Shown: piece after piece, positions 4,394 to 42,250 of the stretch
Layout of the letters: the number at the start of each line of letters is the position of its first letter
Position numbering within the stretch: the first letter of the stretch is position 1
Assembly: GCA_045126475.1 (NCBI GenBank)
Contig: JBGVOL010000067.1
Location: forward strand, 18,105-82,104
Source: Lachnospiraceae bacterium
GTDB taxonomy: Bacteria; Bacillota; Clostridia; Lachnospirales; Lachnospiraceae
Direction: 5' to 3'
DNA: 64,000 bases
Position numbers and translations under genes: made by a program
The notes under the pieces: model-generated
The model's database searches: none
What the model was told of the DNA's origin: nothing
What the model saw: only the letters and a program-made list of their open reading frames with translations

Positions 4394-5275
4394 ATGAAAG
4401 AAAAATTTCTTTTTTTAAAAAACCTTAGATTAAGTCGTTTTGCAATGTTGACGGTGGCGGGAATAATCAATGCTTTTGGCATAACGATTTTTCTTTCACC
4501 GGTTAAATTATATGACAGCGGAATTTCGGGAACATCTATGCTTCTGGCACAGATTACACCGGAAGCATTTTCACTGTCAATCTTTCTTCTTTTGTTGAAT
4601 GTACCTTTGTTTTTGTACGGTCTTAAGAAGCAGGGACCTGAGTTTACCGTATATGCCATATATACGGTAGCAATATATTCTGTGGTGGCATGGCTTATTA
4701 CGGATGTGCTACCTGTGGATGTTAGTATAGCGTCACCTCTTGCCGGAACGGATTTGCTTTTGTGCGCAGTCTTCGGAGGTCTTATATCAGGTGTGGGAAG
4801 CGGTCTTGCCATTAGATTCGGCGGTGCCATGGACGGAATAGAAGTTATGGCTGTAATATTTGCAAAGAAGATAGGAATTACGGTTGGAACATTTGTCATG
4901 ATGTACAATGTGGTACTCTACATTGTGTGTGGTTTTGTGATTCACAGCTGGATACTTCCGCTTTATTCAATCGTTACATATGCGGCGGCGTTAAAGACGG
5001 TAGACTTTATTGTAGAGGGTATAAGCCGTTCTAAATCAGCTATGATTGTCACGGCTCATCCAAAGCATGTTTTCGAAGCATTGTCAAAAGAATTTGAATG
5101 CGGCATGACAATGCTTGATGCCAAGGGCGGATATTCGAATTCAGAGGTAACAATGATTTATTTCGTAGTAAACAGATTTCAGATTACAAAGATGAAGGAT
5201 ATAGTTCATGGAATTGACCCGAAAGCATATATAACCATCAGTGATGTGGCTGATGTATTTAAGTCAAACAGTTAA
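4394..5275 (+). CDS. YitT-family membrane protein (with DUF2179-like C-terminal domain)
   Basis: N-terminal polytopic region (AGIINAFGITIFLSPVKLYDSGISG) and a C-terminal soluble domain (MIYFVVNRFQITKMKDIVHGIDPKAYITISDV). Confidence 0.8.
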   Translation: MKEKFLFLKNLRLSRFAMLTVAGIINAFGITIFLSPVKLYDSGISGTSMLLAQITPEAFSLSIFLLLLNVPLFLYGLKKQGPEFTVYAIYTVAIYSVVAWLITDVLPVDVSIASPLAGTDLLLCAVFGGLISGVGSGLAIRFGGAMDGIEVMAVIFAKKIGITVGTFVMMYNVVLYIVCGFVIHSWILPLYSIVTYAAALKTVDFIVEGISRSKSAMIVTAHPKHVFEALSKEFECGMTMLDAKGGYSNSEVTMIYFVVNRFQITKMKDIVHGIDPKAYITISDVADVFKSNS

Positions 5276-7717: not shown

Positions 7718-7746
7718 TTGACAAAAACCATGTTGTAATGTATAAT
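7718..7746 (+). promoter_or_regulatory. sigma-A-type promoter for the hydrogenase-like MCP gene
   Basis: Consensus TTGACA (7718-7723), 17-nt spacer, consensus TATAAT (7741-7746), about 70 nt upstream of the ATG at 7819. Confidence 0.6.
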
Positions 7747-7818
7747 ATTTCAAGATGATTGCGTGAGCACAATTGAATAAATAACATTATATCATAATAA
7801 AATAGGAGGGTGTAATTT

Positions 7819-9774
7819 ATGTCTAAAACTATTAATGACGGACTGGTGTATACCAACGAAAAGTGTGTTGCGTGTAATAAGTGTATTTCTGCCTGCCCTG
7901 TGCCGGGAGCTAACTACGCAGTTATTGATGCAGACGGAAATTCAAGAATTGAAGTTGACGGAGAGGCTTGTATTGCGTGTGGTGCATGTATGGACGCGTG
8001 TAAGCATGAGGCGAGAGCATTCAGGGATGACACGGAGAGGTTTTTCGAGGATTTAAAGAAGGGAACCAGGATTTCCCTGCTGCTGGCACCGGCTTTTATG
8101 GCAAATTATCCGGCTGAGTATGAGAAGTATCTTGGAATACTTAAGGCGGCAGGCGTGAATCGTATTATAAGTATATCTTTTGGCGCAGATATCACAACAT
8201 GGGCATATATTAACTATATTACAAAGAATAATTTTACAGGAGGAATATCACAGCCATGTCCTGCAGTTGTAGGATATATTGAAAAGTATATTCCGGAACT
8301 GCTTCCGAGACTTATGCCTGTGCACAGTCCGATGATGTGCGGCGCAATTTATGCAAAAAAATATATGGGCATATCGGATAAGCTTGCGTTTATAAGCCCA
8401 TGCATAGCGAAGAAAAATGAGATTGATGACCCGAACTGCGGCGGATATATTTCGTACAATATTACATTCGATCATCTGGTTAAATATATTAAGGAGCATA
8501 AACTCACCGGTCAGCAGCTTGCCAAGGACGAGATTGAATATGGACTTGGTTCTGTTTATCCGATGCCGGGCGGACTTAAGGAGAATGTTTACTGGTTTCT
8601 GGGTGATGAAATATTGGTTCGTCAGGTGGAGGGTGAAAAGCATATGTATGAGTATCTTAGGGAATACAGTGAGAGGGTAAAGAAGAGTAAACCTCTCCCG
8701 TTTATGGTGGATGCCTTAAACTGTTCTCAGGGATGTCTGTACGGGACGGGCGTCGAAGATACAAAAGCCCAAGGTGATGATACGCTGATGAATCTCTGGA
8801 AGATTCGTGAAAACAGTAAAACAAAGCGGGGTGCATGGGGAAAGGATCTCACTCCGAAGAAAAGGCTGGATGCATTTAATGCTCAGTTCAAAAACCTAAG
8901 ACTTGAAGACTTTATAAGAAAATATTCAGACAGGTCAAAAGAGGTGGCACTTGCTGAGCCGTCAGCGGCAGAGATTAATGCTATATTTGATGCTATGCAT
9001 AAGAATGTGGAGTCAAAGAAACATATTGACTGCTCGGCATGCGGTTATGAGGATTGTCATTCTATGGCAAAGGCGATATATAACGGAATAAACTGCAAGG
9101 AGAATTGTGTTCATTATGCAAAGGATCTTGCAGAACTTGAGACAAAGAAAGCAGTTGAACTTAAGGATGAGATAGAAAAACAGACGGAGGATAGACTAAA
9201 GAGAGCACAAAGGATAGACGAGATTATGGGCGATATTTCAACAGATTTTGAGACTTTGCTCAATTCTCTTGAGGGCTTAAGTCAAGGCAATGAAGGAAAT
9301 GCGGAAGAAAGTACGGAAATTGCCAATAATATGCATGATGTCAGCAAAGCAAGCGAAGAGATGATAAATCTGTTTGGCAGAATCGCGGAATTCCTTGTGA
9401 TGATTGAAGGAAATAATGATGCGATTTTTGGCATTGCCTCAAAGACAAATCTTTTGTCACTCAATGCTTCAATTGAGGCTGCAAGGGCAGGAGAGGCAGG
9501 AAGAGGTTTTGCGGTAGTTGCGGGACAGATTAAAGACCTTTCGGATTCGAGCCGAAATGCAGCACAGGATTCAAACCAGAATTCTGTGGAGATACGAAAA
9601 TTTATGGAGAATCTAAAAGAGCAGGCAGATTTGTTAGGAAGTCTTGTAAAGGAAATCAATGACCGTGTCAGCAATCTTGCCGCTGCTACGGAGGAAATCT
9701 CAGCGAGCTCAAAGGTTGTGGAAGATATGTCAAGAAGCATACAGGATAAATTGGAAGAGTTAGTGAAGATGTAA
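7819..9774 (+). CDS. cytoplasmic chemoreceptor: 2x[4Fe-4S] ferredoxin + [FeFe]-hydrogenase large-subunit-like domain fused to an MCP signalling domain
   Basis: Ferredoxin motifs [12 protein letters not shown] and [12 protein letters not shown]. Hydrogenase-like motifs [31 protein letters not shown]-terminal MCP hairpin tip [31 protein letters not shown]. No hydrophobic helices. Confidence 0.8.
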
Positions 9775-9805: not shown

Positions 9806-9848
9806 AAATACGGAAATATATCAGAATGTTTGATATATTTCCGTATTT
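9806..9848 (+). terminator. hairpin terminator after the hydrogenase-like MCP gene
   Basis: AAATACGGAAATATATCA / TGATATATTTCCGTATTT 18-bp perfect stem with a 7-nt loop. The T-tract is weak. Confidence 0.55.
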
Positions 9849-9866
9849 GAGCTATAATTAGCGGAA

Positions 9867-10685
9867 ATGGATATGACAGCGGCAATGAATGAAACAACCC
9901 AGGCAATTACCGGAATTGCAACGGCATCAGGCAATGCCCAGAATTTATCAGGAAAGGTATACAGACAGGCGAGGGAGAATGCTGATAATGCGTCTCGTAT
10001 TAGGAATCATGCAGATGAGGTGAAGGAAAGAAATCAAAAAATGAAAAGCCGGACCATGGAGCTTACCGGGCGTATTGCTGCAGATGTAAGCAATCAGATT
10101 GAGGAAGTAAGAAAAGTTGAACGTATTGTGAAGTTGACAGATGCAATTTTGGAGATTTCGGAGCAGACACAGTTACTTGCGTTGAATGCCAGTATTGAAG
10201 CTGCAAGAGCCGGCGAAGGCGGAAGAGGCTTTGCGGTTGTGGCAGATGAAATTGGTAAACTGGCGGAAGAGACAACTAGGACAGCACAGGCAATTGTAGA
10301 GATAAATCAGTTTACTCTTGATGCTGTGAATGGTCTTTCTGATGCGTCAAAGGATATGATTGCATTTATTCAGAATGATATACAGGGTGATTATGAGAAG
10401 ATGGTTACCGTTGGTGAGGATTATAGTGCAGATGCCCTTGGTTTTATGGAGCAGATGGAACAATTTAGCCAATTGTCGCAAAATCTTAATAATGAACTGT
10501 CTGAGATTGAAAATGATATAAGCCAGATTATGGCGGTTGTGAAAGAGGAGACTGCAAGTATTACTGATGTGACTAATAATGCAGAGAATATAAGTAATAA
10601 AATGAATGTAGTAAATGAAAGCAGTAAGACCAATGGCGAGATTGTAAATGAGTTAGAGGAGGTACTTTCCAAATTTACACTTTAG
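9867..10685 (+). CDS. methyl-accepting chemotaxis protein consisting of the signalling domain only (no sensor or TM region)
   Basis: [34 protein letters not shown] hairpin tip flanked by heptad-rich arms. 272 aa with no hydrophobic helices. Weak RBS, and it starts 19 nt after the upstream terminator, so it may be a truncated remnant. Confidence 0.6.
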
Positions 10686-10698
10686 ATAATAGTAAATA

Positions 10699-10816
10699 AA
10701 AACTGTAAATTCGTGTTAAAATTAGAAGATAAAAAGTGTAAAATCGTGCAAAAATATGTTTATAAAAACTGTAAATCCGGTATTGATATTTTTATGCTAA
10801 GACTGTAAAATGTAAT
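10699..10816. repeat. four direct copies of an AAAACTGTAAA(T/A)-type box at 33-34-bp spacing
   Basis: AAAACTGTAAATTCGTG (10699), AAAAGTGTAAAATCGTG (10732), AAAACTGTAAATCCGGT (10765), AAGACTGTAAAATGTAAT (10799). Lies in the intergenic region upstream of the 10862 gene. Confidence 0.6.
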
Positions 10817-10861
10817 AAACATAGCTGCTGTTTAATGTATTTTGCGTAATGGGAGGTAAAG

Positions 10862-12208
10862 ATGTTCAAGAGAAAGATATACAGTGATATTTTAAAGTGG
10901 AAGGAAGAGTCAGAAGGAACATCGGCACTGCTTATCGAAGGAGCAAGGCGTATTGGAAAGAGCACAGTCGTTGAGGAATTTGCCAGAAATGAATATAAAG
11001 ACTATGTAATTATTGATTTTTCCATAGCAGAACAGGCACTGAAAGATAACTTTGATAATATTGGAAATATAGACACATTTTTTCGAAATTTTTTTCTTAT
11101 AGTGGGGAAGACACTGCCTCAAAGAGAGTCGGTTATTGTTTTTGATGAGGTTCAATTTTTTCCAAAGGCGAGACAGGCGATTAAACATTTGGTAAAAGAT
11201 GGAAGGTTTGATTATATTGAAACGGGTTCTTTAATTTCAATTAATAAAAATGTGAAAGATATTCTGATTCCGTCTGAAGAGGAAAGTATGCAAATGTACC
11301 CTATGGATTTTGAGGAATTTCTCTGGGCTATAGGAAATAATGTTTATGCTGATGTCATCAGGGATGCATTCATTAATAGGAAACCGTTGGGAGCAGATAA
11401 TCATAGAAGGATAATGCAGACATTTAGAAACTATATGGCTGTAGGTGGAATGCCACAGGCGGTGAGTGCATATGTGGACGGAAAGGATTTTGCATATATA
11501 GACAGAGTGAAAAGGAATATATTAAAGTTATATATAAAAGATTTACAAAAACATGATGAGGACGATAGCGATAGGGCTGGTGCGGTGTTTAAGTCACTCC
11601 CGGAACAACTGTCAAATCATAATCATATATTCAAAATGTCAACTGTTGATGCAAATGCAAGAACCAGAAACTGCAAAAGTGCAATTGATTTCCTGGACCA
11701 ATCCATGATAGTGAACAACTGCATAAATGTAACACAGCCGGAAGTAGCTTTGGAACTATACGCAGACAGGTCCAGATTCAAAATGTTTATGGGTGATACG
11801 GGCCTTTTAGTAACATATATTTTGCAAAATAGTAAAGAGGCTCCTGAGAAGCTGTATCGCTCACTTGTTTTGGATGATATTGATATAAATCAGGGAATGA
11901 TATTTGAAAATATGGTGGCTCAGATGTTGAAAGCGTCGGGTTATGATTTGTATTTCCACGAATATGCTTTTAAGGCTGCAGAAAATGAGTCGGAGAAGCG
12001 TTATGAGATTGATTTCTTAATTGTAAAGGGTAAACGGATTGTTCCAATCGAAGTTAAATCCTCCGATTATAAAAGTCACAAGTCGTTTGACTACTTTAAG
12101 GAGAAATATCAGCTGAAAATGAATGAGAGATATATGATATATACAAAAGATCTGGAATGGAAGGACAATATTTTATTCATGCCAATCTATATGACTATGT
12201 GCTTATAA
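10862..12208 (+). CDS. AAA-family ATPase with DUF4143-like C-terminal domain
   Basis: N-terminal ALLIEGARRIGKST Walker A, VIVFDEVQ Walker B, and a C-terminal YEIDFLIVKGKRIVPIEVKSS restriction-endonuclease-like fold motif typical of this family. Confidence 0.75.
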   Translation: MFKRKIYSDILKWKEESEGTSALLIEGARRIGKSTVVEEFARNEYKDYVIIDFSIAEQALKDNFDNIGNIDTFFRNFFLIVGKTLPQRESVIVFDEVQFFPKARQAIKHLVKDGRFDYIETGSLISINKNVKDILIPSEEESMQMYPMDFEEFLWAIGNNVYADVIRDAFINRKPLGADNHRRIMQTFRNYMAVGGMPQAVSAYVDGKDFAYIDRVKRNILKLYIKDLQKHDEDDSDRAGAVFKSLPEQLSNHNHIFKMSTVDANARTRNCKSAIDFLDQSMIVNNCINVTQPEVALELYADRSRFKMFMGDTGLLVTYILQNSKEAPEKLYRSLVLDDIDINQGMIFENMVAQMLKASGYDLYFHEYAFKAAENESEKRYEIDFLIVKGKRIVPIEVKSSDYKSHKSFDYFKEKYQLKMNERYMIYTKDLEWKDNILFMPIYMTMCL

Positions 12209-12261
12209 ATAGTAAATACGAAAACCTTATGTAATAACGATTGAACATGTGAGGAAGAACA

Positions 12262-12786
12262 ATGGATATTAAGATTCTTGATAAAGAAGTTTATAAGGGC
12301 AAAAAATATTCTTTTGAGTATCTGACACCGGGATACTATGATTTAATAGTGAAAGATATGACATTCAGTTTTGTATACAAAGAATACGAAAAAGCCCGGA
12401 AAAAGGGTTTTGAAGATGAGCTGCTGGGTGATTGGTTAGAAGCTCCTGTTTTGTATGGTGCTTATATAAACGGAGAATTGGCCGGTATCATTGAAGGAAG
12501 TATAGAGGGATGGAATAACCGTTTCCGCATAAGTAACATCCTGGTGTTTGATGGCTATAGGCATAATCAGGTCGGAACGAGGCTGATTCAGCATATGATC
12601 AATGAAGCCAGAGAAATGGGTGCCAGAATGGTTGTTTTGGAAACTCAGAGCTGCAATATACCGGCAATTCACTGTTATATGAAAAATGGATTTAAAATCA
12701 TAGGTTTTGATACGCATTCATATTCCAATAATGACATAGAAAAATGTGAAGTACGAATAGAAATGGGGATAGAACTAAAAAAATGA
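12262..12786 (+). CDS. GNAT-family N-acetyltransferase
   Basis: Acetyl-CoA binding motif RHNQVGTRLIQHMINEAREMGARMVVLETQSCNIPAIHCYMKNGFKI. Confidence 0.75.
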   Translation: MDIKILDKEVYKGKKYSFEYLTPGYYDLIVKDMTFSFVYKEYEKARKKGFEDELLGDWLEAPVLYGAYINGELAGIIEGSIEGWNNRFRISNILVFDGYRHNQVGTRLIQHMINEAREMGARMVVLETQSCNIPAIHCYMKNGFKIIGFDTHSYSNNDIEKCEVRIEMGIELKK

Positions 12787-12879
12787 TATTATTTTTGAAG
12801 GTGGAATTTTTGAATTGAAATTAAGAGTAGCAATTAAGTAAGAACGATAAATTATTATGTTAAAGAAGGAACTGTAAGG

Positions 12880-13500
12880 ATGGAATGTAAAGCGTACTTA
12901 GATAATCCGTGCAAGGCATCAAGTCTGCCTTTTTGGAAAACGAACGCAATGGAGATTCCCAAGGGCATAAGGATTTTATTGGATGAAGATTTGCAGAGTG
13001 TTGATACTGATGAATATACAGATGAAAAATATTTTAAGTTGATTCATCGTTTGAACGGTGTAGAGAGACCTCTGCTTGATAGTGATTTTAGAATGGTTTC
13101 TGCAGATGTGCTGGAATATGTAAAACATATAGAAGAATGCTATGACGATATAGGCATTTCATTTGAGGAGCTTACAAGATACAAATTCCATGAAGTCTAC
13201 GATTCAAGTTTGTGGGTTGCGGTAAAGAGTTGTGATGACAACAGAATTGTTGCAAGCGGAATAGCTGAACTTGACACCTTTATTAAAGAAGGTATTTTAG
13301 AATGGATTCAGGTTTCAAAGGATTATCGAGGCAAGGGTCTGGGAAAGTTTATTGTAAAAGAATTACTATGGAGGATGAAAGGTAAAGCAGATTTTGTTAC
13401 TGTTTCCGGAAAAGTTGATAATTCTTCTAATCCTAAGGTTTTGTATGAAAGTTGTGGGTTTGCCGATGGAGAAATATGGCATATATTGACCAGAAGGTAA
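12880..13500 (+). CDS. GNAT-family N-acetyltransferase with N-terminal extension
   Basis: WIQVSKDYRGKGLGKFIVKELL...NPKVLYESCGF motif in the C-terminal half. Confidence 0.7.
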   Translation: MECKAYLDNPCKASSLPFWKTNAMEIPKGIRILLDEDLQSVDTDEYTDEKYFKLIHRLNGVERPLLDSDFRMVSADVLEYVKHIEECYDDIGISFEELTRYKFHEVYDSSLWVAVKSCDDNRIVASGIAELDTFIKEGILEWIQVSKDYRGKGLGKFIVKELLWRMKGKADFVTVSGKVDNSSNPKVLYESCGFADGEIWHILTRR

Positions 13501-13617
13501 ATTCGGCATTTCGGAATATTTTCTGAAAAGTAAATGGAGGTAATATCTATGACGTTGCTTTATTTATAAAATTTGAAAATTTGCAATATATAATGTCGAA
13601 AAAATGGAGGAAATATA

Positions 13618-14028
13618 ATGGAATTTTCAATTAAAGAATACACAGAGTACAACGAAGAGGAAATATTGAATCTGTATCGGAGCGTGGGCTGGTCTAATTA
13701 TTTTAATAACCCGTTAATGCTTAAAAACGCATATGCACACTCTTTGAAAGTATTAGGTGCGTATTCAGAAGACAAACTCCTTGGAATTATAAGAGTTGTT
13801 GGAGACGGATACTCTATTGTACACATTCAGGATATTTTGATTCTGCCGGAGTATCAACGTAGCGGAATAGGCACAGCTTTAATAAAAAGAATTCTTGAAA
13901 TGTATAAGGATGTTTACCAGAAGTCGTTGCTTACTGACAATACAGAGAAGACCGTTCAATTCTATAAATCCCTTGGATTTGAAATGGATACAGATATTGA
14001 ATGTAGAGCGTTTATGAAAATGTATTAA
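13618..14028 (+). CDS. GNAT-family N-acetyltransferase
   Basis: ILILPEYQRSGIGTALIKRILE...QFYKSLGFE. Good RBS (GGAGG). Confidence 0.8.
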   Translation: MEFSIKEYTEYNEEEILNLYRSVGWSNYFNNPLMLKNAYAHSLKVLGAYSEDKLLGIIRVVGDGYSIVHIQDILILPEYQRSGIGTALIKRILEMYKDVYQKSLLTDNTEKTVQFYKSLGFEMDTDIECRAFMKMY

Positions 14029-15703: not shown

Positions 15704-16927
15704 ATGTTATGTCAGTTTACTGTGAAGAATTACAAGAGTATAAGAGATGAAGTGACCTTTGATATGCAAGCAGCAGCAATCTCAGAGCATGAAGATAGAA
15801 TAATCAAAGACCAGGATGGTGAGATGTATTTACCGGTGTCTGCCATTTACGGTCCTAATGGTGGAGGAAAATCCAATGTTCTGGCAGCGTTACACACATT
15901 GGTTGCAAAAATTCTGCGCCCGTTGTATGCGACAGAAGACAACGAAGATAAGGTTCTTTTACAAAAAAGAATTATTGTTGAGCCATTTGCTTTTTCAAAT
16001 AGCAAAAATGAACCAACAGAGTTTGAACTGTTTTTCCGTACAAAGTCTGCAGAGTACAGGTATATCTTGCATGTGAAACGTGATGTGGTTATATATGAGA
16101 GCTTGGACAGAGTGAAGCTTGAGACCGGAAGACGTTCTGCATTATTCACAAGAGACGATAAAGGGATTGTTTTAAAGGGTGCATTTGCAAAACTGAAAGT
16201 CAGTGATGATTTATCAAAGACACTTACCTTGCTTTCCTACTTGGGTATCGCTTATAAGGAAAATGCAGTTGTTAATGATGTATTGAATTGGTTCCAGTTC
16301 GGTGTGAATTTCTTGAATTATGGTAATCCTATTCAGGAGCTTAGAATGGCAATATCCACATCAGAAGATGTGAAGCATCTGATGCTTGAAATGATTCAGG
16401 AAATGAATTTGGACATCGTTGATTTTAGAGTGGAAGAAAAAGAGAATGATAGGATAGAAGTGTTCACAAAACACCTTGTGGATGACGTGGAAACAGAGCT
16501 TAGTTTATCCGATGAATCCAGCGGAACAAAGAAGTTGTTTGGTCTGCTTCCTTTTATTGCGGCAAGTTTGCTTGATGGAACTGTGCTTGTAATTGATGAA
16601 TTGGATGCGAAAATTCATCCGGTGTTGTTGCGTCATATTATCATGATGTTTAATGATATGAACATCAACAGACACAAAGCACAGCTTATTTTCACATCTC
16701 ATGATTTATCGACCATGAACAGCGAAGTGTTCCGCAGAGATGAGATTTGGTTTGTGGCAAAGGGAAATGCACAAAATTCCAAACTATACTCGTTGGTAGA
16801 GTTCAAGAATGAAAAGGGTGAGTCTGTCAGAAAGGATGCAAAGTTTGATAAGCAGTATCTTGAAGGTAAGTACGGCGCTGATCCATACCTCAGAAGAATT
16901 ATAGATTGGGGGAAAGTCAATGCCTAA
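15704..16927 (+). CDS. AAA_15/AAA_21-type ABC-like ATPase (AbiLi/RloA-like defence ATPase)
   Basis: FTVKNYKSIRDEV N-terminus, Walker A GPNGGGKSNVL, Walker B/D-loop VLVIDELDAKIHPVLL, FTSHD, C-terminal YLEGKYGADP. Confidence 0.8.
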   Translation: MLCQFTVKNYKSIRDEVTFDMQAAAISEHEDRIIKDQDGEMYLPVSAIYGPNGGGKSNVLAALHTLVAKILRPLYATEDNEDKVLLQKRIIVEPFAFSNSKNEPTEFELFFRTKSAEYRYILHVKRDVVIYESLDRVKLETGRRSALFTRDDKGIVLKGAFAKLKVSDDLSKTLTLLSYLGIAYKENAVVNDVLNWFQFGVNFLNYGNPIQELRMAISTSEDVKHLMLEMIQEMNLDIVDFRVEEKENDRIEVFTKHLVDDVETELSLSDESSGTKKLFGLLPFIAASLLDGTVLVIDELDAKIHPVLLRHIIMMFNDMNINRHKAQLIFTSHDLSTMNSEVFRRDEIWFVAKGNAQNSKLYSLVEFKNEKGESVRKDAKFDKQYLEGKYGADPYLRRIIDWGKVNA

Positions 16928-17615
16928 AAAAGCCGGAATGGAGAAATGGAAAAAGAAACGTCGTCAAGAATACTTGGAGATGAAACAATATAGATATTAC
17001 ATCTTCTGCGAGGGACAACAGACAGAACCATTATATTTTGCAGCCTTTAAGAAACTGATTGAGGAAAATCCAATCTATAAGGATATGGTTTTGATAGAGA
17101 TTGAACCTTGCCAGGCAGAAACCATGCGAGTAATCGGCATGGCAGAGGATTATGTAAAGAAAAATAAAATCAATAAGGGGCAAATCTGGTGCGTTTATGA
17201 CAAGGATAGTTTTCCGGCAGAGCACTTTAATGGTGTTGTGGAACGCGCAGAGAGTTTAAACAAAGAAAATCCGGAATTACAGTATCATACCGCATGGAGT
17301 AATGAGTGTATTGAGTTCTGGTTCCTGCTTCACTTTGCATATTACACGGCTAATAACCATAGAACGGAGTATATATCGTTCTTGAATGAAAAGTTCAAGG
17401 AATTGGGGATTGGTAAGTATCAGAAGAACATGAATAATATCTTTGAGATTCTGATGGAGTATGGTAATCCGAAGCTGGCGATTCGATATGCGAAGCGAAT
17501 TATAAAGGATGGAACAGGTAAAACACCGACAGAGATTGCGCCGGGAACTAAGGTGTATGAGTTGGTAGAGGAACTGGCAAAGTATTTGCCGGGGGAAATA
17601 AATATGTGCATCTAA
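16920..17615 (+). CDS. RloB-like (Toprim-related) protein, AbiLii-like partner
   Basis: YYIFCEGQQTEPLYF, VWCVYDKD and AWSNECIEFWFLLHF motifs. The start overlaps the ATPase stop by 8 nt (ATGCCTAA), suggesting translational coupling. Confidence 0.8.
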   Translation: MPKKAGMEKWKKKRRQEYLEMKQYRYYIFCEGQQTEPLYFAAFKKLIEENPIYKDMVLIEIEPCQAETMRVIGMAEDYVKKNKINKGQIWCVYDKDSFPAEHFNGVVERAESLNKENPELQYHTAWSNECIEFWFLLHFAYYTANNHRTEYISFLNEKFKELGIGKYQKNMNNIFEILMEYGNPKLAIRYAKRIIKDGTGKTPTEIAPGTKVYELVEELAKYLPGEINMCI

Positions 17616-17631
17616 CGGAGAGTTATAAAAA

Positions 17632-18255
17632 ATGATAGAGCAAAAAATGAAGAATAGAAAAACACGAACTCAGAAAGAAAGAATGGAAATAAAAAGGTTA
17701 AAGGAAGAAAATTACAGATTGAGAGAAATAAATGCTGATTTAGTGGGAAAACTTGGAGAAAATAAGAAAAATGATAAGTCGATGAGTTCTTGTCCGAGTA
17801 GAAAGCAAGTGTTATATACATATATATATGATAGTGTGGTTTCTTCTTTGATACTAGTATTTTTATATTGGCTAGCAATTAACGGGTATGATAATTTTAA
17901 TTTACCTTATAACTGCTCTTTGATTTTGATAGTTATGGTTTCATTAAAGTGTATATTAGGCAATAAAAAGCTAAATTTTAAAGTAGTAATAAGAGTTATT
18001 GTAAATGATTTATTAAAGCCGTTTGGGGCAATGCTTTTAGGTCTATTTTTATGTATATATTGTTTGGGGAAAGAATGGAGAAGTGCATTCGGTTATGCTT
18101 TGGATGTTGCAAATATGGGAGTTTTAATTATTTTTGTTATTGCTGTAGTAATAGCTATTTTTTTAACAACTTATGCAATATTATTCCTAAAAAAACAATA
18201 TAGAAAACTTTATGTGATAATAAAACGCATGATGAAGCAGAGATGCTGCAAATGA
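17632..18255 (+). CDS. hypothetical membrane protein: basic coiled-coil N-terminus plus ~4 TM helices
   Basis: GGAGAG RBS 16 nt after the RloB stop. N-terminus KNRKTRTQKERMEIKRLKEENYRLREINADL, then four hydrophobic segments. Very AT-rich codons. Confidence 0.55.
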   Translation: MIEQKMKNRKTRTQKERMEIKRLKEENYRLREINADLVGKLGENKKNDKSMSSCPSRKQVLYTYIYDSVVSSLILVFLYWLAINGYDNFNLPYNCSLILIVMVSLKCILGNKKLNFKVVIRVIVNDLLKPFGAMLLGLFLCIYCLGKEWRSAFGYALDVANMGVLIIFVIAVVIAIFLTTYAILFLKKQYRKLYVIIKRMMKQRCCK

Positions 18256-18288
18256 AACAAGATTTAATATCAAAATAGACAAGATATA

Positions 18289-18394
18289 ATTTCGGGAAGT
18301 AATCCAGCTACTTATTCAGCAAGAACTTGACAATTCGAAAAATGATGAAAATATCAAAAGTATACTTCTTGGTAATTGGAAAGGAATTTGGTAG
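18289..18394 (+). pseudogene. 3'-terminal remnant of a decayed gene (copy B, paralogue of 14446..14640)
   Basis: An in-frame stop lies two codons upstream. It reads REVIQLLIQQELDNSKNDENIKSILLGNWKGIW*, roughly two-thirds identical by eye at nucleotide level to 14536-14640. Confidence 0.4.
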
Positions 18395-18470
18395 ATTTTA
18401 GGATAAAGATAGAATAACTGTAAATCCCCTGCATACAATTTAGAAAACAAGTATTCCGAGGGGACTACTT

Positions 18471-18731
18471 TTGAAAGGATATATTGAGGAGCGTGCTATC
18501 GATATAGCACATTACATAATAGCCAATAATGCCACGGTCAGGCAGGCAGCAAAAAAATTCGGCGTCAGTAAGTCAACCGTACATAAGGATGTAGCAGACC
18601 GCCTTGCAGGGATTCATCCGGCTCTGGCGGCGGAAGCGAGAAAAGTTCTCGACCAGAATAAGGCAGAACGTCATATTCGCGGTGGCATGGCAACGAAGGA
18701 CAGGTACCTAAGAGAAAAAAGTGCAGAATAG
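18471..18731 (+). CDS. spoIIID: sporulation transcriptional regulator SpoIIID
   Basis: IEERAIDIAHYIIANNATVRQAAKKFGVSKSTVHKDV...AERHIRGG matches the SpoIIID HTH family. TTG start. Followed by mbl as in B. subtilis. Confidence 0.9.
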   Translation: MKGYIEERAIDIAHYIIANNATVRQAAKKFGVSKSTVHKDVADRLAGIHPALAAEARKVLDQNKAERHIRGGMATKDRYLREKSAE

Positions 18732-18740
18732 AAAAAGGAG

Positions 18741-18770
18741 AAGAGCGTCTTGTTAACAAGGCGCTCTTTT
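18741..18770 (+). terminator. rho-independent terminator after spoIIID
   Basis: AGAGCGTCTTG / CAAGGCGCTCT stem (one G-U pair), TTAA loop, then TTTTG. Confidence 0.6.
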
Positions 18771-19250
18771 GTGTTCTCCTTCATTAAATGAAAAGGAGTG
18801 GATATGAAGAATGAAAAACATGTATGCAATCTGCAATTGCAACCGATATATAGGAACTCACATGTAATTGTGAGATTAATTCTAGGGGGCATGACAGCTT
18901 GTTCGGCTGTCATGCAGAGTTATGAAAATGTTAAGTTGCATACTATCTTTTTAATAGTATGGTTATAATATAAAGGTAAATTGTGTTGAAAGTGTGTTTT
19001 AAAAATGAAAAAAATATGTTTTATTCATTTTGTTGAAATTACTGCTTTTGAGGATTGATTTATAGACAGAAATGTAAAGAAAAGAGACAAAAATGACGAT
19101 ATATAATTCGAAACTGAAAATTTCCTTAAAAAGTTCTTTCATATTTTAAAGTTATTGTATATAATAAAATGGTTCATTGTGACTAAGTAATTAATTATGC
19201 ATATGGTGCAAGACAATAAATTGTGTTAAGGATTTTGAAAGGAGTTTAAT

Positions 19251-26519: not shown

Positions 26520-27032
26520 GTGGCAAGTTTAATTGATGAACTTATAGATGTTCTCGGAAAAGAAGAAAAAGAATATCAGGACTTGATACTACTCTCCCGG
26601 GAAAAAACTCCCGTGTTGGTTAAGGGAGATTTGGAGAAACTTCAGAAGATAACGGATGCAGAGCAGTTCGTTATAGGGAAAATAAATAAGTTAGAGAAAA
26701 GGAGAACAGAGGTAGTAACAGATATAGCTCTTGTTCTCGGAAAAAACAAGGATACACTTAAAGTAACAGAGATAGCAGAATTGTTGAACAGTCAGCCGGA
26801 AGAACAGAAGAGGCTTCTGGAAATCTACGACAAGCTTAAAGATACCCTGAATAAGATTCAGACAGTAAATGACCTTAACAGGGAACTGGTCAATGAATCA
26901 CTTGATTTTATCAAGTACAATCTGGATCTTTTTAAGAGTGCTTATCAGGAACCGGTGACAGGAAATTATACAAAGGAAGCATCCAATGCTTCAACCGTTC
27001 CCGGTGCAGGAGTATTCGATGCGAAACAGTAA
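26520..27032 (+). CDS. flgN: FlgN-like flagellar export chaperone (YvyG position)
   Basis: All-helical 170-aa protein (LIDELIDVLGKEEKEYQDLILLSREK) between flgM and flgK. GTG start after GGGAGAGG. Confidence 0.65.
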   Translation: MASLIDELIDVLGKEEKEYQDLILLSREKTPVLVKGDLEKLQKITDAEQFVIGKINKLEKRRTEVVTDIALVLGKNKDTLKVTEIAELLNSQPEEQKRLLEIYDKLKDTLNKIQTVNDLNRELVNESLDFIKYNLDLFKSAYQEPVTGNYTKEASNASTVPGAGVFDAKQ

Positions 27033-27047: not shown

Positions 27048-28964
27048 ATGTCACTTATGACAAGTATGTGGGTCGGAGTATCAGGATTACGCGCCCAGCA
27101 GAATGCCATAAATACCACATCTCATAACCTGGCAAATATATATTCCGATGGTTATGTAAGACAGCAGGTAAGCATGGCTGACAATACATATCAGAATTTG
27201 GGTCTTACACAGGCAAATACGAAACAGTTGGGTCTCGGTGTTGTGTCAGCAGAAACACGGCATATAAGAGACCTTTTATTAGATAGAGCGTTCCGTGAAG
27301 AGGGAGGACGGTACGGCTTCTATACTGCAAGATATGAAGCAGCAGAAGAAGTACAGGATATCCTTGGAGAAACAGAAGGAGTTCAGTTTCAGGAATCCTT
27401 AAAGGACCTTTGGAATGCAATCAGCGAGGTGGCAAAGACACCGGACAGCCTTGTTGCACGCTCAGGACTTGTAATGAGTGCAGAGGCATTTATAAGCAGA
27501 GCAAACGGTATTTATCAGGAACTTATCGACTATCAGCAGAAAATAGATAAAAAAGTAACCGATACGGTAGATAAGATAAACAGTCTTGCAGACAAGATAT
27601 ATGCTTTAAGCGAAAAAATATCAGTGGTTGAGGCGGCAAAGGTTGAGACTGCAGCAGATTTAAGAGACCAGAGGGATCTGGCACTTGATGAACTGGGAAA
27701 ACTGGTGAAGATAACATATAGTGAAGACGAAAACGGATATATGAACGTCCGGGCTGAAGGACAGGAATTTATATCAAAAGCAGGTGTGTGGCATATGGAA
27801 CTGGCACATCTTGAAGGAGATGAAGGTTCTACGTATTTGTCTCCCGTATGGCCACAGCTTGACGGAGGACCTGTTTTTAACCTGAAGGAAGCAATTACAC
27901 CTCAGAAGAATAACGATATCGGAGAACTGAAAGGATATCTTCTTGCAAGAGGCGGATATGTTGCAAATTATAAAGATATTCCTGTTAAACCGGAGAGACA
28001 GAATTATCCTGACGGGGATGCAGGCACAGCCCAGTTCAGGGCGGATCTTGAGAATTACTATAATGTAGAAGCAGTTGAATACAACAAAAATGTTGGCAAT
28101 ACAGTAGTAATGAAGTCTCAGGCCATGTTAGACCAGCTTGTAAACAAGATAGTAACGCTGGTAAATGATATACTTTCACCTACAAAGAAAATTGATACAG
28201 GTGGCGGACTGACGGTTACAGTTCCGGCGGGAACATGCATTAACAATGTGGATGACTCATTGAAGGAAGCACTGAAAAAAGCAGTGGATAACGGCACAGC
28301 CACAGTCGACAGATTTGGTGTGCTGCAAAATCCCGGAGGAGTGACTGTTACAATCGCAGCGGATGCAGAGCTTACAATTCTTGATATGGATAAAACATCT
28401 TACGGAACAGACCCAGATAAGACACCGGGAACAGAGCTTTTTGTGAGAAATAACCAGCCTGAAAGATATACAAAGGTAACAGGCGCCGACGGAACAGAGT
28501 ATTATGTTTATAATAAAAACGACGATTTTGGCGATGAGTCTTTATATACTCTCGGAAATTTAGGAATTAATGAAAAGGTTCTTGATGATTACTCATATCT
28601 TCCGTTTAAAACAAAAGAGGAAGATGTGGATTTACAGATGGGAGAGAGACTTCTGGCAGCGTGGGATTCGGCGGATGTATGTATTGACCCGAACAACACC
28701 ACAAAGAAAGATATTAACGATTATTACAGTGCTATGGTTGGTATAATCGGCAATGACGGATATATGTATAATGCCGTTGCGGAAAGCCAGTCAAGTCTTA
28801 TATCTTCCATAGACGAGAAAAGGGAGTCAAAGCAGGGAGTTACATCAGAAGAAGAACTTACAAATCTGATAAAATTCCAGAATGCGTACAATGCTTCATC
28901 AAGATATATTACAACTATAGCAGATATGATAGATACACTTATCAACAAGGTTGGCAACTGGTAA
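27048..28964 (+). CDS. flgK: flagellar hook-associated protein 1 (FlgK), long form
   Basis: N-terminal VGVSGLRAQQNAINTTSHNLANIYSDGYVRQ and C-terminal EELTNLIKFQNAYNASSRYITTIADMIDTLINK. Confidence 0.85.
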   Translation: MSLMTSMWVGVSGLRAQQNAINTTSHNLANIYSDGYVRQQVSMADNTYQNLGLTQANTKQLGLGVVSAETRHIRDLLLDRAFREEGGRYGFYTARYEAAEEVQDILGETEGVQFQESLKDLWNAISEVAKTPDSLVARSGLVMSAEAFISRANGIYQELIDYQQKIDKKVTDTVDKINSLADKIYALSEKISVVEAAKVETAADLRDQRDLALDELGKLVKITYSEDENGYMNVRAEGQEFISKAGVWHMELAHLEGDEGSTYLSPVWPQLDGGPVFNLKEAITPQKNNDIGELKGYLLARGGYVANYKDIPVKPERQNYPDGDAGTAQFRADLENYYNVEAVEYNKNVGNTVVMKSQAMLDQLVNKIVTLVNDILSPTKKIDTGGGLTVTVPAGTCINNVDDSLKEALKKAVDNGTATVDRFGVLQNPGGVTVTIAADAELTILDMDKTSYGTDPDKTPGTELFVRNNQPERYTKVTGADGTEYYVYNKNDDFGDESLYTLGNLGINEKVLDDYSYLPFKTKEEDVDLQMGERLLAAWDSADVCIDPNNTTKKDINDYYSAMVGIIGNDGYMYNAVAESQSSLISSIDEKRESKQGVTSEEELTNLIKFQNAYNASSRYITTIADMIDTLINKVGNW

Positions 28965-29009
28965 GATTAGAAATCAATGGCAGAGATGCCGGAGAAGGAG
29001 GAGCAGGCT

Positions 29010-30491
29010 ATGGCAAATTCATTTTTTGGATTGCATATTGGAACATCAGGATTATATGCGGCCAATACATGGCTTAATATAACGGCCAATAATATTTCAA
29101 ATGAACAGACAAAAGGATATTCGAGACAGACAGCCACACAGCAGGCTTCAAAGGCACTCCGCGTATACCAGAGATACGGTGAGATTGGAAGTGGTGTGGA
29201 GGTAAGCGACATCACAAGAGTCAGGGATGAGTATTATGACGTAAAGTACTGGAATAACCAGTGCAAGTATGGTGACAGTACAACGAAAGCATATTATCTT
29301 ATGCAGATTGAAGACTATTTTGCTGATGACGGTAAGTCGGGATTTACCACAGAATTCAGCGGCTTTTATAACAGCCTTGATGAACTTTCAAAGACACCTG
29401 CCGATTTGTCGGCAAGAAGTTCAATGCTCAATTATGCAGAAAACTTTCTCGAATATATGAGCACCATTAAGACAAATCTTCAGAATACTCAGGCAGACCT
29501 CAATGCCGAGATATACAGTAATGTTGACAAGATTAACTCATTGTCAAAGGAAATCGCCATAATTAATAAACAGATAAATGTTATTGAGCTTCAGGGCGCA
29601 AATGCCAATGAACTTCGTGACAAAAGGTCACTTCTTGTAGATGAACTTTCGTCAATTGTTGAGGTAGATACTCATGAAGTGTTTTATGAAAACGGAAAAT
29701 CAGAGTACTACGTGACTATCTGCGGAAAATCACTTGTTAATAATTATGACTGTTTTACACTTGAGACAAAGGCAAGAGAGGAAAAGGCAGATGAAGATGA
29801 CCTTGTAGGACTTTATGATATAAAGTGGAGTTACGGTGAAGATTTTGACCCGGCAGCTTCGGGAACAAGGGGAACCCTCTCGGCACTTATACTGCTGAGA
29901 GACGGTAATAACAGCGTTGCGGAAGCAGGCAACCCGGTGGCGGAGAAAGTTGATTTCAAGGGTATACCTTATTATATTGATGAGATAGATAAGTTCCTTG
30001 ATAAGTTTACGGAGACAATTAATGAGGTTCATGCTAAGGGAGTTAATCTTTATGATGAACCTACGACAGACATACCATTCTTTATACAGGATAAATCAGG
30101 CAAGTACATTGTAAATCCTGAGATAATGGAAGATCCGATGAAGCTTGCCACAAGTACATACGGCACGGCTGAAATCAGTGCATCTGACATTGTGGATGAA
30201 CTGGTGAATACAAAGAATTATAAGAATTTTGACGGCGGAACGGCGAAGGAAGCTCTTAATACTATTATTACGGAGTTATCCATAGATTCAAAAAAAGCAC
30301 AGTCACAGGAGAAAAATTATACTAACTTCCAAAAACTTATACAGAACCAGAGATTGTCAATCATGGGTGTTGATAAAGATGAGGAAGCAATGAATCTGGT
30401 AAAGTATCAGGAAGCATATGATTTGTCGGCAAAGGTTATTCAGATTATGTCTGAAATATACGATAAACTTATAAATGAAACAGGATTATAG
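29010..30491 (+). CDS. second FlgK-family hook-associated protein
   Basis: FFGLHIGTSGLYAANTWLNITANNISNEQTKGYSRQ and EEAMNLVKYQEAYDLSAKVIQIMSEIYDKLINE. Start moved to MANSFFG (29010), 6 nt after GGAGGAG. Confidence 0.75.
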   Translation: MANSFFGLHIGTSGLYAANTWLNITANNISNEQTKGYSRQTATQQASKALRVYQRYGEIGSGVEVSDITRVRDEYYDVKYWNNQCKYGDSTTKAYYLMQIEDYFADDGKSGFTTEFSGFYNSLDELSKTPADLSARSSMLNYAENFLEYMSTIKTNLQNTQADLNAEIYSNVDKINSLSKEIAIINKQINVIELQGANANELRDKRSLLVDELSSIVEVDTHEVFYENGKSEYYVTICGKSLVNNYDCFTLETKAREEKADEDDLVGLYDIKWSYGEDFDPAASGTRGTLSALILLRDGNNSVAEAGNPVAEKVDFKGIPYYIDEIDKFLDKFTETINEVHAKGVNLYDEPTTDIPFFIQDKSGKYIVNPEIMEDPMKLATSTYGTAEISASDIVDELVNTKNYKNFDGGTAKEALNTIITELSIDSKKAQSQEKNYTNFQKLIQNQRLSIMGVDKDEEAMNLVKYQEAYDLSAKVIQIMSEIYDKLINETGL

Positions 30492-30512
30492 AATGGATAA
30501 GGAGGAAACAGG

Positions 30513-31955
30513 ATGCGTATTACAAACAGTATTATGATAAATAATTCGCTAAATAATATCAGCAAGAATAAAACACTTTCTGATAAACTTAATACACAGC
30601 TTTCTACGACAAAAAAGATACAGCGTCCTTCGGAGGACCCTATCGTAGCTATTCGCGCACTGAGACTTCGCTCCACATACAATGAAATTGAACAGTATCT
30701 TGATAAGAATATATCGGATGCAAGGTCGTGGATGGAGACAACACAGGAGGCTATTGAAAGTATCAATTCAGTTCTTACGGATATTTCGGGGTATTGCAAT
30801 CAGGGTGTAAACGGGTATAATACAGTTGAGGAGAGAAATACTCTTATTACGACCTTGAAGCAGCTTCGTGATCAGATATATTCCGATGGTAACGCCAATC
30901 TTGTTGACAGAACATTGTTCACGGGATACAAGACAGACGCCGACCTGACATTCAGGGATGATGAGCCGAATACAAAATACGAGATGACTCAGGAATTTAC
31001 GGCAGATGATATAAAAAATACTAACCGTATTCTGGGACTTGACATATCTACCATAAACGGAAATGTATCAGGCTCAAGCATATACAATAACCAGCATCAC
31101 GTAATTAATCTGGGGTATACTGAGATTGACTCTGTATCGGAGATTACAATAGGTAATACAACATACAGTCTCGGAGCAGGAAATCTTATTGAACTGACAA
31201 ATACAAATCCGACAGTATACAGAACCGTTCCGGCAGGCTCCATTGCATATGTGAAGGAAACGGGAGAAATCCTTCTTGGAAGTAATGCCTTTAATGCAAT
31301 GTCGGCAGGCGAAAATATGTCGGTTACATACAGTAAGACGGGTTTTGATACAGGAGAATTAAGACCGGAGCATTACTTTACATGTACTAACGTTACAAAA
31401 GGCGTCTCATATACAAAGAAGGATATGCCGATTAATTATACCATTAATTTCAATCAGACAATTACCATAAATACTCAGGCACAGAATGTACTTCCTCATG
31501 CTATTGCAAGAGACCTTGATGAGATAATCAACAGTGTTGTGACTGCGGTTGATGTGCAGACAAAAATTGATTCCCTTAATAAAAGACTGGAAACAGAACA
31601 GGACGGGACAACAATTAAGAATATCAACTATATGCTTGATGTGTTGAAACTTGAGTTGTCATATGCGGAAGATAATATGAAGAACTGCTTTTCAGCAGGT
31701 ATTACGGAATATAAGAAGCATCAGGAAAAACTCAGCACAGAGCTTTCAGATATAGGTGCGAGACTTATAAGACTGTCACTGAATGAAGAAAGACTTACAA
31801 CTCAGAAACTCAATGTAGAGGATTTGAAGAGTAAGAATGAAGAGATAGAGGAAGAGGAAGTGGCAGTAGAATGGGCGGCAGCACAGGCAGTATACGATGC
31901 GTCACTTGCTACATCGGCAAAGGTAGTTCAGAAGTCATTGCTAGATTTCTTATAA
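30513..31955 (+). CDS. flgL: flagellar hook-associated protein 3 (FlgL), enlarged (480 aa)
   Basis: MRITNSIMINNSLNNISKNKTLSDKLNTQLSTTKKIQRPSEDPIVAIRALRLRS, a flagellin-like N-terminus typical of FlgL. Confidence 0.8.
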   Translation: MRITNSIMINNSLNNISKNKTLSDKLNTQLSTTKKIQRPSEDPIVAIRALRLRSTYNEIEQYLDKNISDARSWMETTQEAIESINSVLTDISGYCNQGVNGYNTVEERNTLITTLKQLRDQIYSDGNANLVDRTLFTGYKTDADLTFRDDEPNTKYEMTQEFTADDIKNTNRILGLDISTINGNVSGSSIYNNQHHVINLGYTEIDSVSEITIGNTTYSLGAGNLIELTNTNPTVYRTVPAGSIAYVKETGEILLGSNAFNAMSAGENMSVTYSKTGFDTGELRPEHYFTCTNVTKGVSYTKKDMPINYTINFNQTITINTQAQNVLPHAIARDLDEIINSVVTAVDVQTKIDSLNKRLETEQDGTTIKNINYMLDVLKLELSYAEDNMKNCFSAGITEYKKHQEKLSTELSDIGARLIRLSLNEERLTTQKLNVEDLKSKNEEIEEEEVAVEWAAAQAVYDASLATSAKVVQKSLLDFL

Positions 31956-42163: not shown

Positions 42164-42212
42164 TCAAAATCACATAAGTAAGCCGTACATGCAATTGTAT
42201 GGCAGGGCTTTA

Positions 42213-42250
42213 AATCGCACGAGCAGAAAATCGCTCGTGCGATTTTTTTT
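42213..42250 (+). terminator. rho-independent terminator of flagellin 1
   Basis: ATCGCACGAGC / GCTCGTGCGAT stem followed by TTTTTTTT. Confidence 0.85.

Follow-up and report, generated by a model that had tools for sequence, protein, structure and literature searches.

The 64,000-nt stretch of Lachnospiraceae DNA analysed here (the window, part of contig JBGVOL010000067.1) encodes a 651-aa protein in which an [FeFe]-hydrogenase module of the group C type, putatively sensory, is joined to the signalling hairpin of a methyl-accepting chemotaxis protein (MCP). Domain matches, cofactor motifs and conservation across the family support its description as a soluble MCP of this kind, and the kind is a known one, catalogued since 2016, of which this gene is a typical member. 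As to what the protein does, the explanation that we favour, with somewhat more belief than doubt, is that of a cytoplasmic H2 or redox taxis receptor of group C2 type built around an H-cluster, the sensing of H2 by this protein being plausible.

The gene is an open reading frame (ORF) of 1956 nt including the stop codon, with an ATG start. Its boundaries rest on the ORF list, on six contigs from independent samples that encode the identical protein and on homologues, more than 120 of which match over the full length at 58-80% identity. The gene and its expression signals are the following:

7718..7746, + strand: Sigma-70/SigA-type promoter, TTGACA-17 nt-TATAAT, a 12/12 consensus match and the best in the 2.4 kb scanned
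7805..7810, + strand: Shine-Dalgarno sequence AGGAGG, 8 nt before the ATG, read directly
7819..9774, + strand: coding sequence of the hydrogenase-like chemoreceptor
9807..9847, + strand: terminator-like 19-bp hairpin 3' of the stop codon (RNA fold, -26.3 kcal/mol)

A previous interpretation of this DNA, made from the letters and translations alone (the sequence-only reading), had proposed a consensus sigma-A promoter and the absence of transmembrane (TM) helices, and both proposals agree with our results. No TM helix was found in the 651-aa protein, whose Kyte-Doolittle maximum over 19 residues is 1.23, whereas the full-length version of the neighbouring MCP, described below, shows two clear TM peaks. 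The hairpin after the stop codon is unusually stable (z = -5.7, with 0 of 200 shuffles equally stable); its U-tract is weak, and a consensus terminator scan made no call there. With a promoter, a Shine-Dalgarno sequence and a terminator hairpin of its own, the gene looks monocistronic. Between near-identical strains it differs at only 2 of the 1956 nt, both synonymous, which is too few to inform on selection.

The N-terminal two thirds of the protein (residues 1-436, here called the cassette) contain the metal-binding features:

7846..8013, + strand: 2x[4Fe-4S] ferredoxin-type domain, residues 10-65 (C16/19/22/26 and C51/54/57/61), by Pfam Fer4_10/Fer4/Fer4_7
8083..8754, + strand: [FeFe]-hydrogenase H-domain, residues 89-312, by Pfam PF02906, AlphaFold2 (AF2) and Foldseek
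8248..8268, + strand: P1 motif S-Q-P-C-P-A-V, residues 144-150, by HMMER alignment
8395..8421, + strand: P2 motif S-P-C-I-A-K-K-N-E, residues 193-201, by HMMER alignment
8710..8751, + strand: P3 motif, residues 298-311, core L-N-C-S-Q-G-C, by a second HMMER stretch and Pfam
9031..9108, + strand: accessory [4Fe-4S] motif Cx2Cx4Cx16C (C405, C408, C413 and C430), with a weak Pfam PF04060 match at residues 403-431

The dicluster ferredoxin domain and the hydrogenase large-subunit-like domain had both been recognized by eye in the sequence-only reading, and profile searches bear them out. Fe_hyd_lg_C (PF02906) matches residues 89-309 with an E-value of 1.3e-30 and 107 bits, against a cut-off of 22. 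The same check by profile models, which had been suggested as a way of classifying the protein, leaves the models of the catalytic groups A and B1 far below their own cut-offs (TIGR04105, 131 bits against 450; TIGR02512, 83 bits against 406). The full-length AF2 model has an overall predicted local distance difference test (pLDDT) score of 81, and 80-95 across the cassette. When this model was compared with the Protein Data Bank (PDB) by Foldseek, all of the top 50 matches were [FeFe]-hydrogenases, with probability 1.0 and ~440-480 aligned columns; no group C or D structure was among the PDB matches.

The H-cluster motifs were aligned by HMMER to the solved hydrogenases 8a6t and 7p5h, and the corresponding residues (C299 and so on) are given in CpI numbering. 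Conservation was counted in 68 full-length homologues (58-80% identity) and in 133 divergent clusters, formed at 50% identity from proteins with the cassette; these reach down to ~36% identity and include all output types. In P1, isqPCPav aligns with tsCCPsw, so that C147 corresponds to the ligand C300 and P146 stands in place of the proton-relay Cys C299. Q145, P146, C147 and P148 are invariant in close homologues, and the position of C299 is occupied by Pro in 108 of the 133 divergent clusters and by Cys in none. P2 aligns with vMPCigKKfE, which equates C195 with C355, K198 with K358 and E201 with E361 and puts S193 in place of M353; the Cys is kept in 132 of the divergent clusters, the Lys in 127 and the Glu in 130, and the Ser is found in 113. 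P3 aligns with evMaCpgGCmsGgG, C302 being C499, C306 the bridging Cys C503, and L300 replacing M497. The alignment of P3 falls in a second HMMER stretch that is non-significant alone (~0 bits), and its assignment depends on the Pfam match, which reaches residue 309, together with the invariance of C302 and C306 in the family. These two Cys are present in 132/133 divergent clusters and Leu occupies the position of M497 in 122/133, while the complete Pro/Ser/Leu triad at C299/M353/M497 occurs in 95/133. The alterations of the H-cluster motifs pointed out in the sequence-only reading, with Pro at C299 and the Lys and the four ligand Cys retained, are thus real and typical of the whole clade.

In group A hydrogenases protons travel along C299-E279-S319-E282. 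Here the segment with E279 and E282 is replaced by T-W-A-Y with a gap of 4 residues, and S319 is the only member kept. Since C299 is a Pro and the E279/E282 segment is lost, the catalytic proton-transfer pathway is gone. The loss of this pathway, the departure from TSCCPxW and the scores below the model cut-offs place the protein outside the catalytic groups A and B. Loss of the group A proton pathway has also been reported for the sensory groups C and D (PMC8163306).

The remaining positions expected around the cofactor are strongly constrained. All 16 cluster Cys are invariant in the 68 full-length homologues, where the mean column identity is 70% and the cofactor ligands and the MCP tip do not vary, and they are present in 131-133 of the 133 divergent clusters. 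Besides K358 and E361, the CpI-equivalent residues S319 and P231 are kept in 131 and 130 of these clusters, and the equivalents of G502 and G506 in 131-132.

The Cx2Cx4Cx16C motif, overlooked in the sequence-only reading, adds a fourth metal site (the third accessory-cluster motif). Its four Cys are kept in 133/133 divergent clusters. Published work names this very motif as what unites groups C (M2f) and D (M2e), both putatively sensory (PMC8163306, PMC13104023), and it is the strongest single marker linking the protein to the sensory HydS lineage. By its position, this C-terminal cluster must also be the point where the signal leaves the sensor.

HydDB defines [FeFe] group C2, 'Chemotactic (putative)', by an H-domain linked to an MCP domain and proposes for it a function in H2 sensing (PMC5037454). 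This is the chemotactic subtype of group C to which, according to the sequence-only reading, genome surveys assign such fusions, and the attribution is accurate. Our assignment of the protein to group C2 follows from its architecture, with MCPsignal in the same polypeptide, and the protein shows every sequence-detectable feature that marks HydDB group C2 and the sensory HydS lineage. It does not fit the definition of M2f, in which a PAS domain comes after the C-terminal cluster: no PAS family matches the 651-aa protein in Pfam at E<=0.1. It had further been stated that no such fusion has been shown to bind an H-cluster or to drive taxis; in line with this, our literature searches returned, for members linked to an MCP, catalogue entries and metagenomic counts only.

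The C-terminal third of the protein forms the output half, which is linked to the cassette by a helix:

9109..9279, + strand: helical stalk between the last cluster Cys and the MCP bundle, residues 431-487, ending at the G490-N491 kink, by AF2 and spacing
9289..9771, + strand: MCP signalling hairpin, residues 491-651, tip Glu E559, by Pfam, phmmer, AF2 and Foldseek
9463..9522, + strand: hairpin tip, CheA-CheW interaction region, residues 549-568, nearly every residue invariant in the family
9682..9705, + strand: candidate CheR/CheB methylation site A-A-T-E-E-I-S-A, residues 622-629, by consensus match

MCPsignal matches residues 534-642 (E 2.2e-21, 77 bits against a cut-off of 34.6), and phmmer aligns residues 458-641, thus both arms of the hairpin, with Tm14 (3g6b) at E 4e-14. 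Since the full-length AF2 model shows an unbroken DSSP helix from 431 to 650, in which the hairpin is invisible, we modelled residues 396-651 separately. In this second model a helix at 427-487 starts inside the cluster motif, breaks at 488-490 with a kink at the invariant G490-N491, and is followed by a second helix that runs to the end; pLDDT exceeds 90 around the tip. Foldseek searches with it returned MCP hairpins exclusively at E<1e-3, the best geometry being that of Tm14 (3g67; TM-score 0.72, root-mean-square deviation 3.3 A, 185 columns). The tip is canonical, with 20 of 27 residues identical to what we take to be the tip segment of E. coli Tsr. The candidate methylation site fits the consensus [ASTG]xx[EQ][EQ]xx[ASTG] at 66 residues from the tip, and among the 68 homologues A621 is conserved in 67, T624 in 66, E625 in 54, E626 in 62 and A629 in 66. 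The hairpin had been called complete in the sequence-only reading, and complete it is. It is also short: the C-terminal arm has 92 residues after the tip (~13 heptads), like that of Tm14, whereas the neighbouring MCP has 155 (22 heptads); by its arm lengths the hairpin is of a short class. The pathway assignment of short MCP classes is uncertain in other bacteria (PMC7534058).

In order to describe how the two halves are connected, we measured the distance between the last cluster Cys and the tip. The spacing between C430 and E559 is 129 residues in all 110 close homologues that were matched by motif patterns. In the divergent clusters of MCP type, where the tip was located by local alignment, the spacing is 129 in 20 of 42 and 129±7k in 30 of 42. 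Among clusters with other lengths 10/22 are in heptad phase (p = 4e-4), or 6/16 when each distinct length is given one vote (p = 0.019). The helix begins at residue 431 in the full-length AF2 model and inside the cluster motif in the partial one. A fixed or heptad-phased spacing, together with a helix that starts within the cluster motif, supports a rigid, register-preserving coiled-coil stalk and suggests rigid coupling of the C-terminal cluster domain to the hairpin through it.

The cassette is found with other partners too. A search with residues 1-440 retrieved 3208 representative proteins at E<1e-3, 724 of them at E<1e-30. The tails of the best 150, taken as 50%-identity clusters, were classified with Pfam-verified seeds; most of these proteins have the full-length cassette and some are truncated. 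The tails were distributed as follows:

MCP: 43 of the best 150
histidine kinase, often hybrid with REC/Hpt: ~44 of the best 150
GGDEF and/or EAL: 37 of the best 150
HD-GYP: 1 of the best 150
unclassified: 24 of the best 150, several of them short and probably fragments, or with about the length of the cassette alone

No PAS domain was found in the 10 cassette proteins scanned with Pfam. The identity of the cassettes is independent of the output that they carry, the HD-GYP protein being 58% identical and many MCP-type proteins 40-48%. In a neighbour-joining tree of the cassette, drawn without support values, output types are interleaved, which we take as an indication of output swapping. The 436-aa cassette thus behaves as a portable sensor input module. 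Fusions of the PAS-less cassette to HD-GYP, GGDEF, GGDEF-EAL and hybrid histidine kinases were seen in other organisms, and in one protein (P0126) a histidine kinase-REC module lies N-terminal to the cassette. We did not find [FeFe] versions linked to cyclic di-GMP (c-di-GMP) listed as a HydDB subtype.

Put together, these features suggest how a group C2-type taxis receptor might work. The H-cluster in vivo, H2 as the stimulus, the sign of the response and the coupling to the flagellar Che system are what we infer. The H-domain keeps the four H-cluster ligands and the CN-binding Lys, and its turnover should be slow because the proton pathway is dismantled; instead of processing H2, the cofactor would report the partial pressure of H2, the redox poise of the ferredoxin pool, or both. 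HydEFG, encoded elsewhere in the genome, would install the [2Fe] subsite. Binding or oxidation of H2 would then alter the redox or conformational state of the H-domain, and the change would pass through the C-terminal cluster domain into the helix that starts at its last ligand, C430. This helix would dimerise as a register-locked coiled-coil stalk leading into the short four-helix hairpin of the MCP, the tip of which would modulate CheA/CheW and thereby CheY-P and flagellar rotation, while the conserved EE site could allow adaptation by CheR/CheB. A bolder proposal goes further: that the protein is a bona fide H2 chemoreceptor whose H-cluster is loaded by the maturases, that the PAS-less 436-aa cassette serves as a general H2 plug-in for chemotaxis, c-di-GMP and two-component signalling, and that the signal exits by a register-locked coiled coil set on the C-terminal [4Fe-4S] cluster. 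To this we give tentative credence, short of calling it probable.

The family is widespread. Relatives of the gene are present in at least 597 species-representative genomes, and the best 80 are almost all labelled as Lachnospiraceae or as genera of that family (Roseburia, Acetatifactor, Kineothrix), and cultured carriers such as R. yibonii, R. amylophila and strain P6A3 are among these 80. The best match among the species representatives is only 76% identical, which indicates that the species of the window itself is absent from that set.

Around the gene, the sequence-only reading had drawn support from an adjoining MCP without a sensor. This ORF turned out to be a remnant:

9867..10685, + strand: truncated MCP remnant, 272 aa, recognized by comparison with the sister contig L001; outside the system

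Its sequence corresponds, at 99.6% identity, to residues 304-574 of a TM-HAMP-MCP of 574 aa, the intact form of which L001 carries (10455-12179). A 971-bp deletion between 7-bp direct repeats GGATATG (junction 9869-9875) removed the Shine-Dalgarno sequence, the ATG and codons 1-303, and with them the sensor, both TM segments and the HAMP domain. The deletion allele was also found in contigs L002 and L003, and is hence polymorphic among strains. A promoter with 11/12 consensus matches (9830-9858) still stands ahead of the remnant. We therefore rejected the neighbouring MCP as a functional partner, as a deletion remnant that has no Shine-Dalgarno sequence and is polymorphic.

Conserved synteny was rejected as functional evidence as well, since the gene has no conserved linkage to MCP, flagellar, che or hyd genes. 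Another MCP lies within 2.5 kb of the gene in 2/80 species loci and in flanks of up to 10 kb in 3/80, a second gene with an H-domain was found in the flanks of 2/80, and in three relatives annotated with Pfam the neighbours are housekeeping genes. A Lachnospiraceae metagenome-assembled genome (JAAUZL010000023.1) apparently carries two hydrogenase-MCP paralogues ~7 kb apart, at 10217-11000 and 17306-19165; its extra H-domain match is 72.6% identical to the protein of the window. The flagellar genes invoked in the sequence-only reading do exist, FlgF/G, FlgN/K/L, FliW, FliD and three flagellins lying at 20-46 kb of the window, but their proximity is not conserved in relatives and does not stand as evidence of function.

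Several observations weigh against an H2 taxis receptor with an H-cluster. The sizeable ORFs of the 64-kb window include no che, hyd or hydE/F/G genes, and its radical-SAM genes at 51.4, 53.7 and 58.2 kb match no HydE or HydG model, although a window without maturases is uninformative for the rest of the genome. No che genes were found in the examined flanks of the relatives, and the hairpin is much shorter than that of the neighbouring 44H-like MCP. The literature searched contained no biochemical or genetic study of an MCP-linked member; what it offered was in vitro work on TmHydS (PAS-type) and TamHydS (group D), and metagenome counts of group C2. The position of C299 holds Pro here and Ala in TamHydS, which may bear on cofactor insertion. 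The four ligand Cys are no proof of a [2Fe] subsite, because they are also kept in the Nar1/NARF-type proteins, which bind [4Fe-4S] only, have the fold of the H-domain and show no hydrogenase activity. As for the path of the signal, in TamHydS the C-terminal cluster does not become reduced under 1 atm H2 (PMC13104023). By analogy, a signal travelling down the helix would more likely be conformational than a change in the redox state of the cluster, and a simple model in which that redox state drives the helix is unlikely.

The strongest alternative, which we nonetheless consider unlikely, is that of a sensor of redox state, O2 or NO based on Fe-S clusters only. Here the H-domain would bind the [4Fe-4S] subcluster alone, in the manner of Nar1/NARF, and the four cubanes would report ferredoxin/NADH redox or suffer oxidant damage; a strict anaerobe would use such a sensor for energy taxis or to avoid oxygen, and H2 would play no part. 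Four sites of the [4Fe-4S] type are certain from the sequence, the maturases were not found in the 64-kb window and, with the proton pathway gone, chemistry at a [2Fe] site is not needed for function. Moreover, the cassette feeds generic outputs, as PAS or GAF redox sensors do, and cofactor-based receptors for energy taxis and aerotaxis (Aer, Aer2, HemAT) are an established theme among MCPs. What such a sensor leaves unaccounted for is the constraint on the residues that contact the [2Fe] subsite, K358 (127/133), P231 (130), G502/G506 (131-132) and C503 (132). In addition, the nearest characterised relatives, TamHydS and TmHydS, take up the [2Fe] subsite and respond to H2, and [FeFe]-hydrogenases are made in the host lineage. 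Genes for fermentative ones are present and transcribed in the Roseburia lineage (PMC12578642), where maturases are thus to be expected.

A second alternative accepts the H-cluster and places the output elsewhere: the protein would feed a Che-like pathway not devoted to motility, or would be a scaffold within a cytoplasmic array by which gene expression or metabolism is controlled in response to H2, in parallel with the paralogues linked to histidine kinases and GGDEF. Close relatives of the cassette do feed c-di-GMP and two-component outputs, short hairpin classes of other bacteria are notoriously hard to assign to a pathway (PMC7534058), and there were no linked che genes in the loci examined. 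The canonical tip, the conserved methylation-consensus site and the flagellar regulon in the window speak for motility instead, and the named genera of the carriers are flagellated. Alternative Che pathways are not known to us from Lachnospiraceae, and we judge this possibility improbable. Finally, a decaying fusion, a pseudo-enzyme relic without signalling role, might be suspected from the gene decay that the adjoining MCP remnant reveals at this locus and from a survey that discarded group C2 matches as non-validated hydrogenases (PMC9431212), but the conservation data (relatives in no fewer than 597 species-representative genomes, and invariant ligands and tip at a mean column identity of 70%), with a perfect promoter and Shine-Dalgarno sequence and an identical protein in six independent samples, effectively refute it.

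H2 is a central currency of fermentation in gut and rumen and, to our knowledge, no chemoreceptor for it has been demonstrated so far. If the bolder proposal above is true, motile, H2-producing and butyrate-forming Lachnospiraceae could steer along H2 gradients, for instance towards hydrogen-consuming partners or away from an inhibitory build-up of H2. The protein gives convenient access to two matters, H2 taxis in bacteria and the way in which sensory [FeFe]-hydrogenases transmit their signal; on the latter, the latest work on TamHydS argues against the simplest cluster-redox model (PMC13104023). A member fused to an MCP offers an easy behavioural or CheA-activity read-out, unlike the PAS-type and stand-alone HydS proteins, and the heptad-phased link of 129 residues from Cys to tip is a concrete hypothesis of transduction that can be mutated. 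Butyrate-producing Lachnospiraceae with flagella are rich in this family; genes of group C2 have been reported as strongly depleted in Crohn's disease metagenomes and, in the rumen, as differing between cattle breeds with different methane yield. Knowing the stimulus of group C2 proteins would therefore be of ecological relevance.

The window contains other features of note. A GGDEF diguanylate cyclase without the hydrogenase-like cassette is encoded ~6 kb upstream (372-1547, - strand). The gene of a YitT/DUF2179 membrane protein (4394-5275), upstream of an ABC transporter, is present in the window and in contigs L001, L003 and L004 and missing in L002, another indel polymorphism between near-identical strains. 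At 10862-14028 a DUF4143/AAA_14 ATPase, which matches the PADLOC candidate defence family PDC-S01 (E 6e-105), is followed by three small ORFs, the counterparts of which in L001 are annotated as GNAT-type acetyltransferases. At 15704-17615 there is an abortive-infection pair of the AbiL type, AbiLi (PADLOC E 6e-84; Pfam AAA_21) and AbiLii (E 4e-30; Pfam RloB), which is absent at the matching position in L001 and L002, where other genes are found, and looks like a variable defence islet.

The flagellar region includes FlgN-like chaperones at 26520-27032 and 35503-35994, two adjoining FlgK-like genes (638 and 504 aa) with a 480-aa FlgL-like protein that has Flagellin_N alone (27048-31955), FliW (31972-32427) and three tandem flagellin genes of 481-485 aa (40718-45711). 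After the flagellins comes an island of low GC content (45845-62390; 0.31-0.35 against ~0.40) with NeuB, a nucleotidyltransferase, SIS/HAD proteins, a thiamine pyrophosphate enzyme, FkbM methyltransferases, a pyruvyl transferase and three radical-SAM proteins, one of them SPASM. This is probably a flagellin-glycosylation or nonulosonic-acid island, possibly acquired horizontally.

Among known systems, we found nothing in the protein that conflicts with HydDB group C2, a class known from gut and rumen Clostridia and counted as a matter of routine in metagenomes. To this our comparisons add that histidine kinase, GGDEF/EAL and HD-GYP outputs also occur in the same cassette lineage, where they are interleaved in the tree. 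The usual description of group C as an H-domain fused to PAS differs from the PAS-less cassette, which still falls within the HydDB idea of regulatory subtypes.

The most informative comparison is with TamHydS, a putative sensory [FeFe]-hydrogenase of group D (M2e) from Thermoanaerobacter mathranii (PMC8163306, PMC13104023). Its sequence was taken from a machine-read supplement with frame errors, and the comparison was accordingly made at the level of motifs and over 200 aa. TamHydS resembles the cassette in length (~437 aa), in its 2x[4Fe-4S] domain, H-domain and Cx2Cx4Cx16C, in the loss of C299 and in M353S/M497L, and its motif forms ISSACPAVV and FISPCAAK are near-identical to P1 and P2 here (xCPAVV, FISPCxAK). 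It differs in sequence (~27% identity over the first 200 residues), in having Ala instead of Pro at C299, and in having no fused output domain, whereas here the cassette runs directly into the MCP hairpin. Both TamHydS and TmHydS assemble the H-cluster and react with H2 in vitro (PMC8163306), and the likeness to TamHydS is the best argument that the cassette described here could assemble one too.

TmHydS, of group C (M2f) from Thermotoga maritima, is by its published description (Chongdar 2018, as cited in later work) similar in its N-terminal clusters, in an H-domain without the proton-relay Cys, in its C-terminal four-Cys cluster and in an output module downstream of it. There, however, a PAS domain comes after the cluster, where our protein is helical from residue 427 or 431 onward, and its pocket is M353G/M497S (PMC8163306) instead of Ser/Leu. 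The MCP half in turn resembles Tm14 of T. maritima (PDB 3G67/3G6B), which is soluble, with a canonical tip and a hairpin about as short as this one. Tm14 lacks any sensor domain, while here a metallo-sensor of 436 aa precedes the hairpin.

In principle, the regulatory [NiFe]-hydrogenases (group 2b HoxBC/HupUV with the kinase HoxJ/HupT) are alike, as slow hydrogenases that act as H2 sensors and control a signalling protein (PMC5037454). They differ in fold and cofactor, which are unrelated, in their separate subunits and in their output, which is transcription. The Nar1/NARF-type proteins are set apart as eukaryotic Fe-S assembly factors without Cx2Cx4Cx16C or a signalling output. Aer, Aer2 and HemAT share the general plan, in which an MCP hairpin bears a sensor that is soluble or faces the cytoplasm and whose cofactor is redox- or gas-binding, and an 'Aerotaxis receptor' (31cj) is among the PDB matches of the 651-aa protein. 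These receptors use FAD or haem in a PAS or globin fold and HAMP linkers, whereas the protein described here, which has neither PAS nor HAMP, would place an Fe-S/H-cluster-type sensor directly on a coiled-coil stalk.

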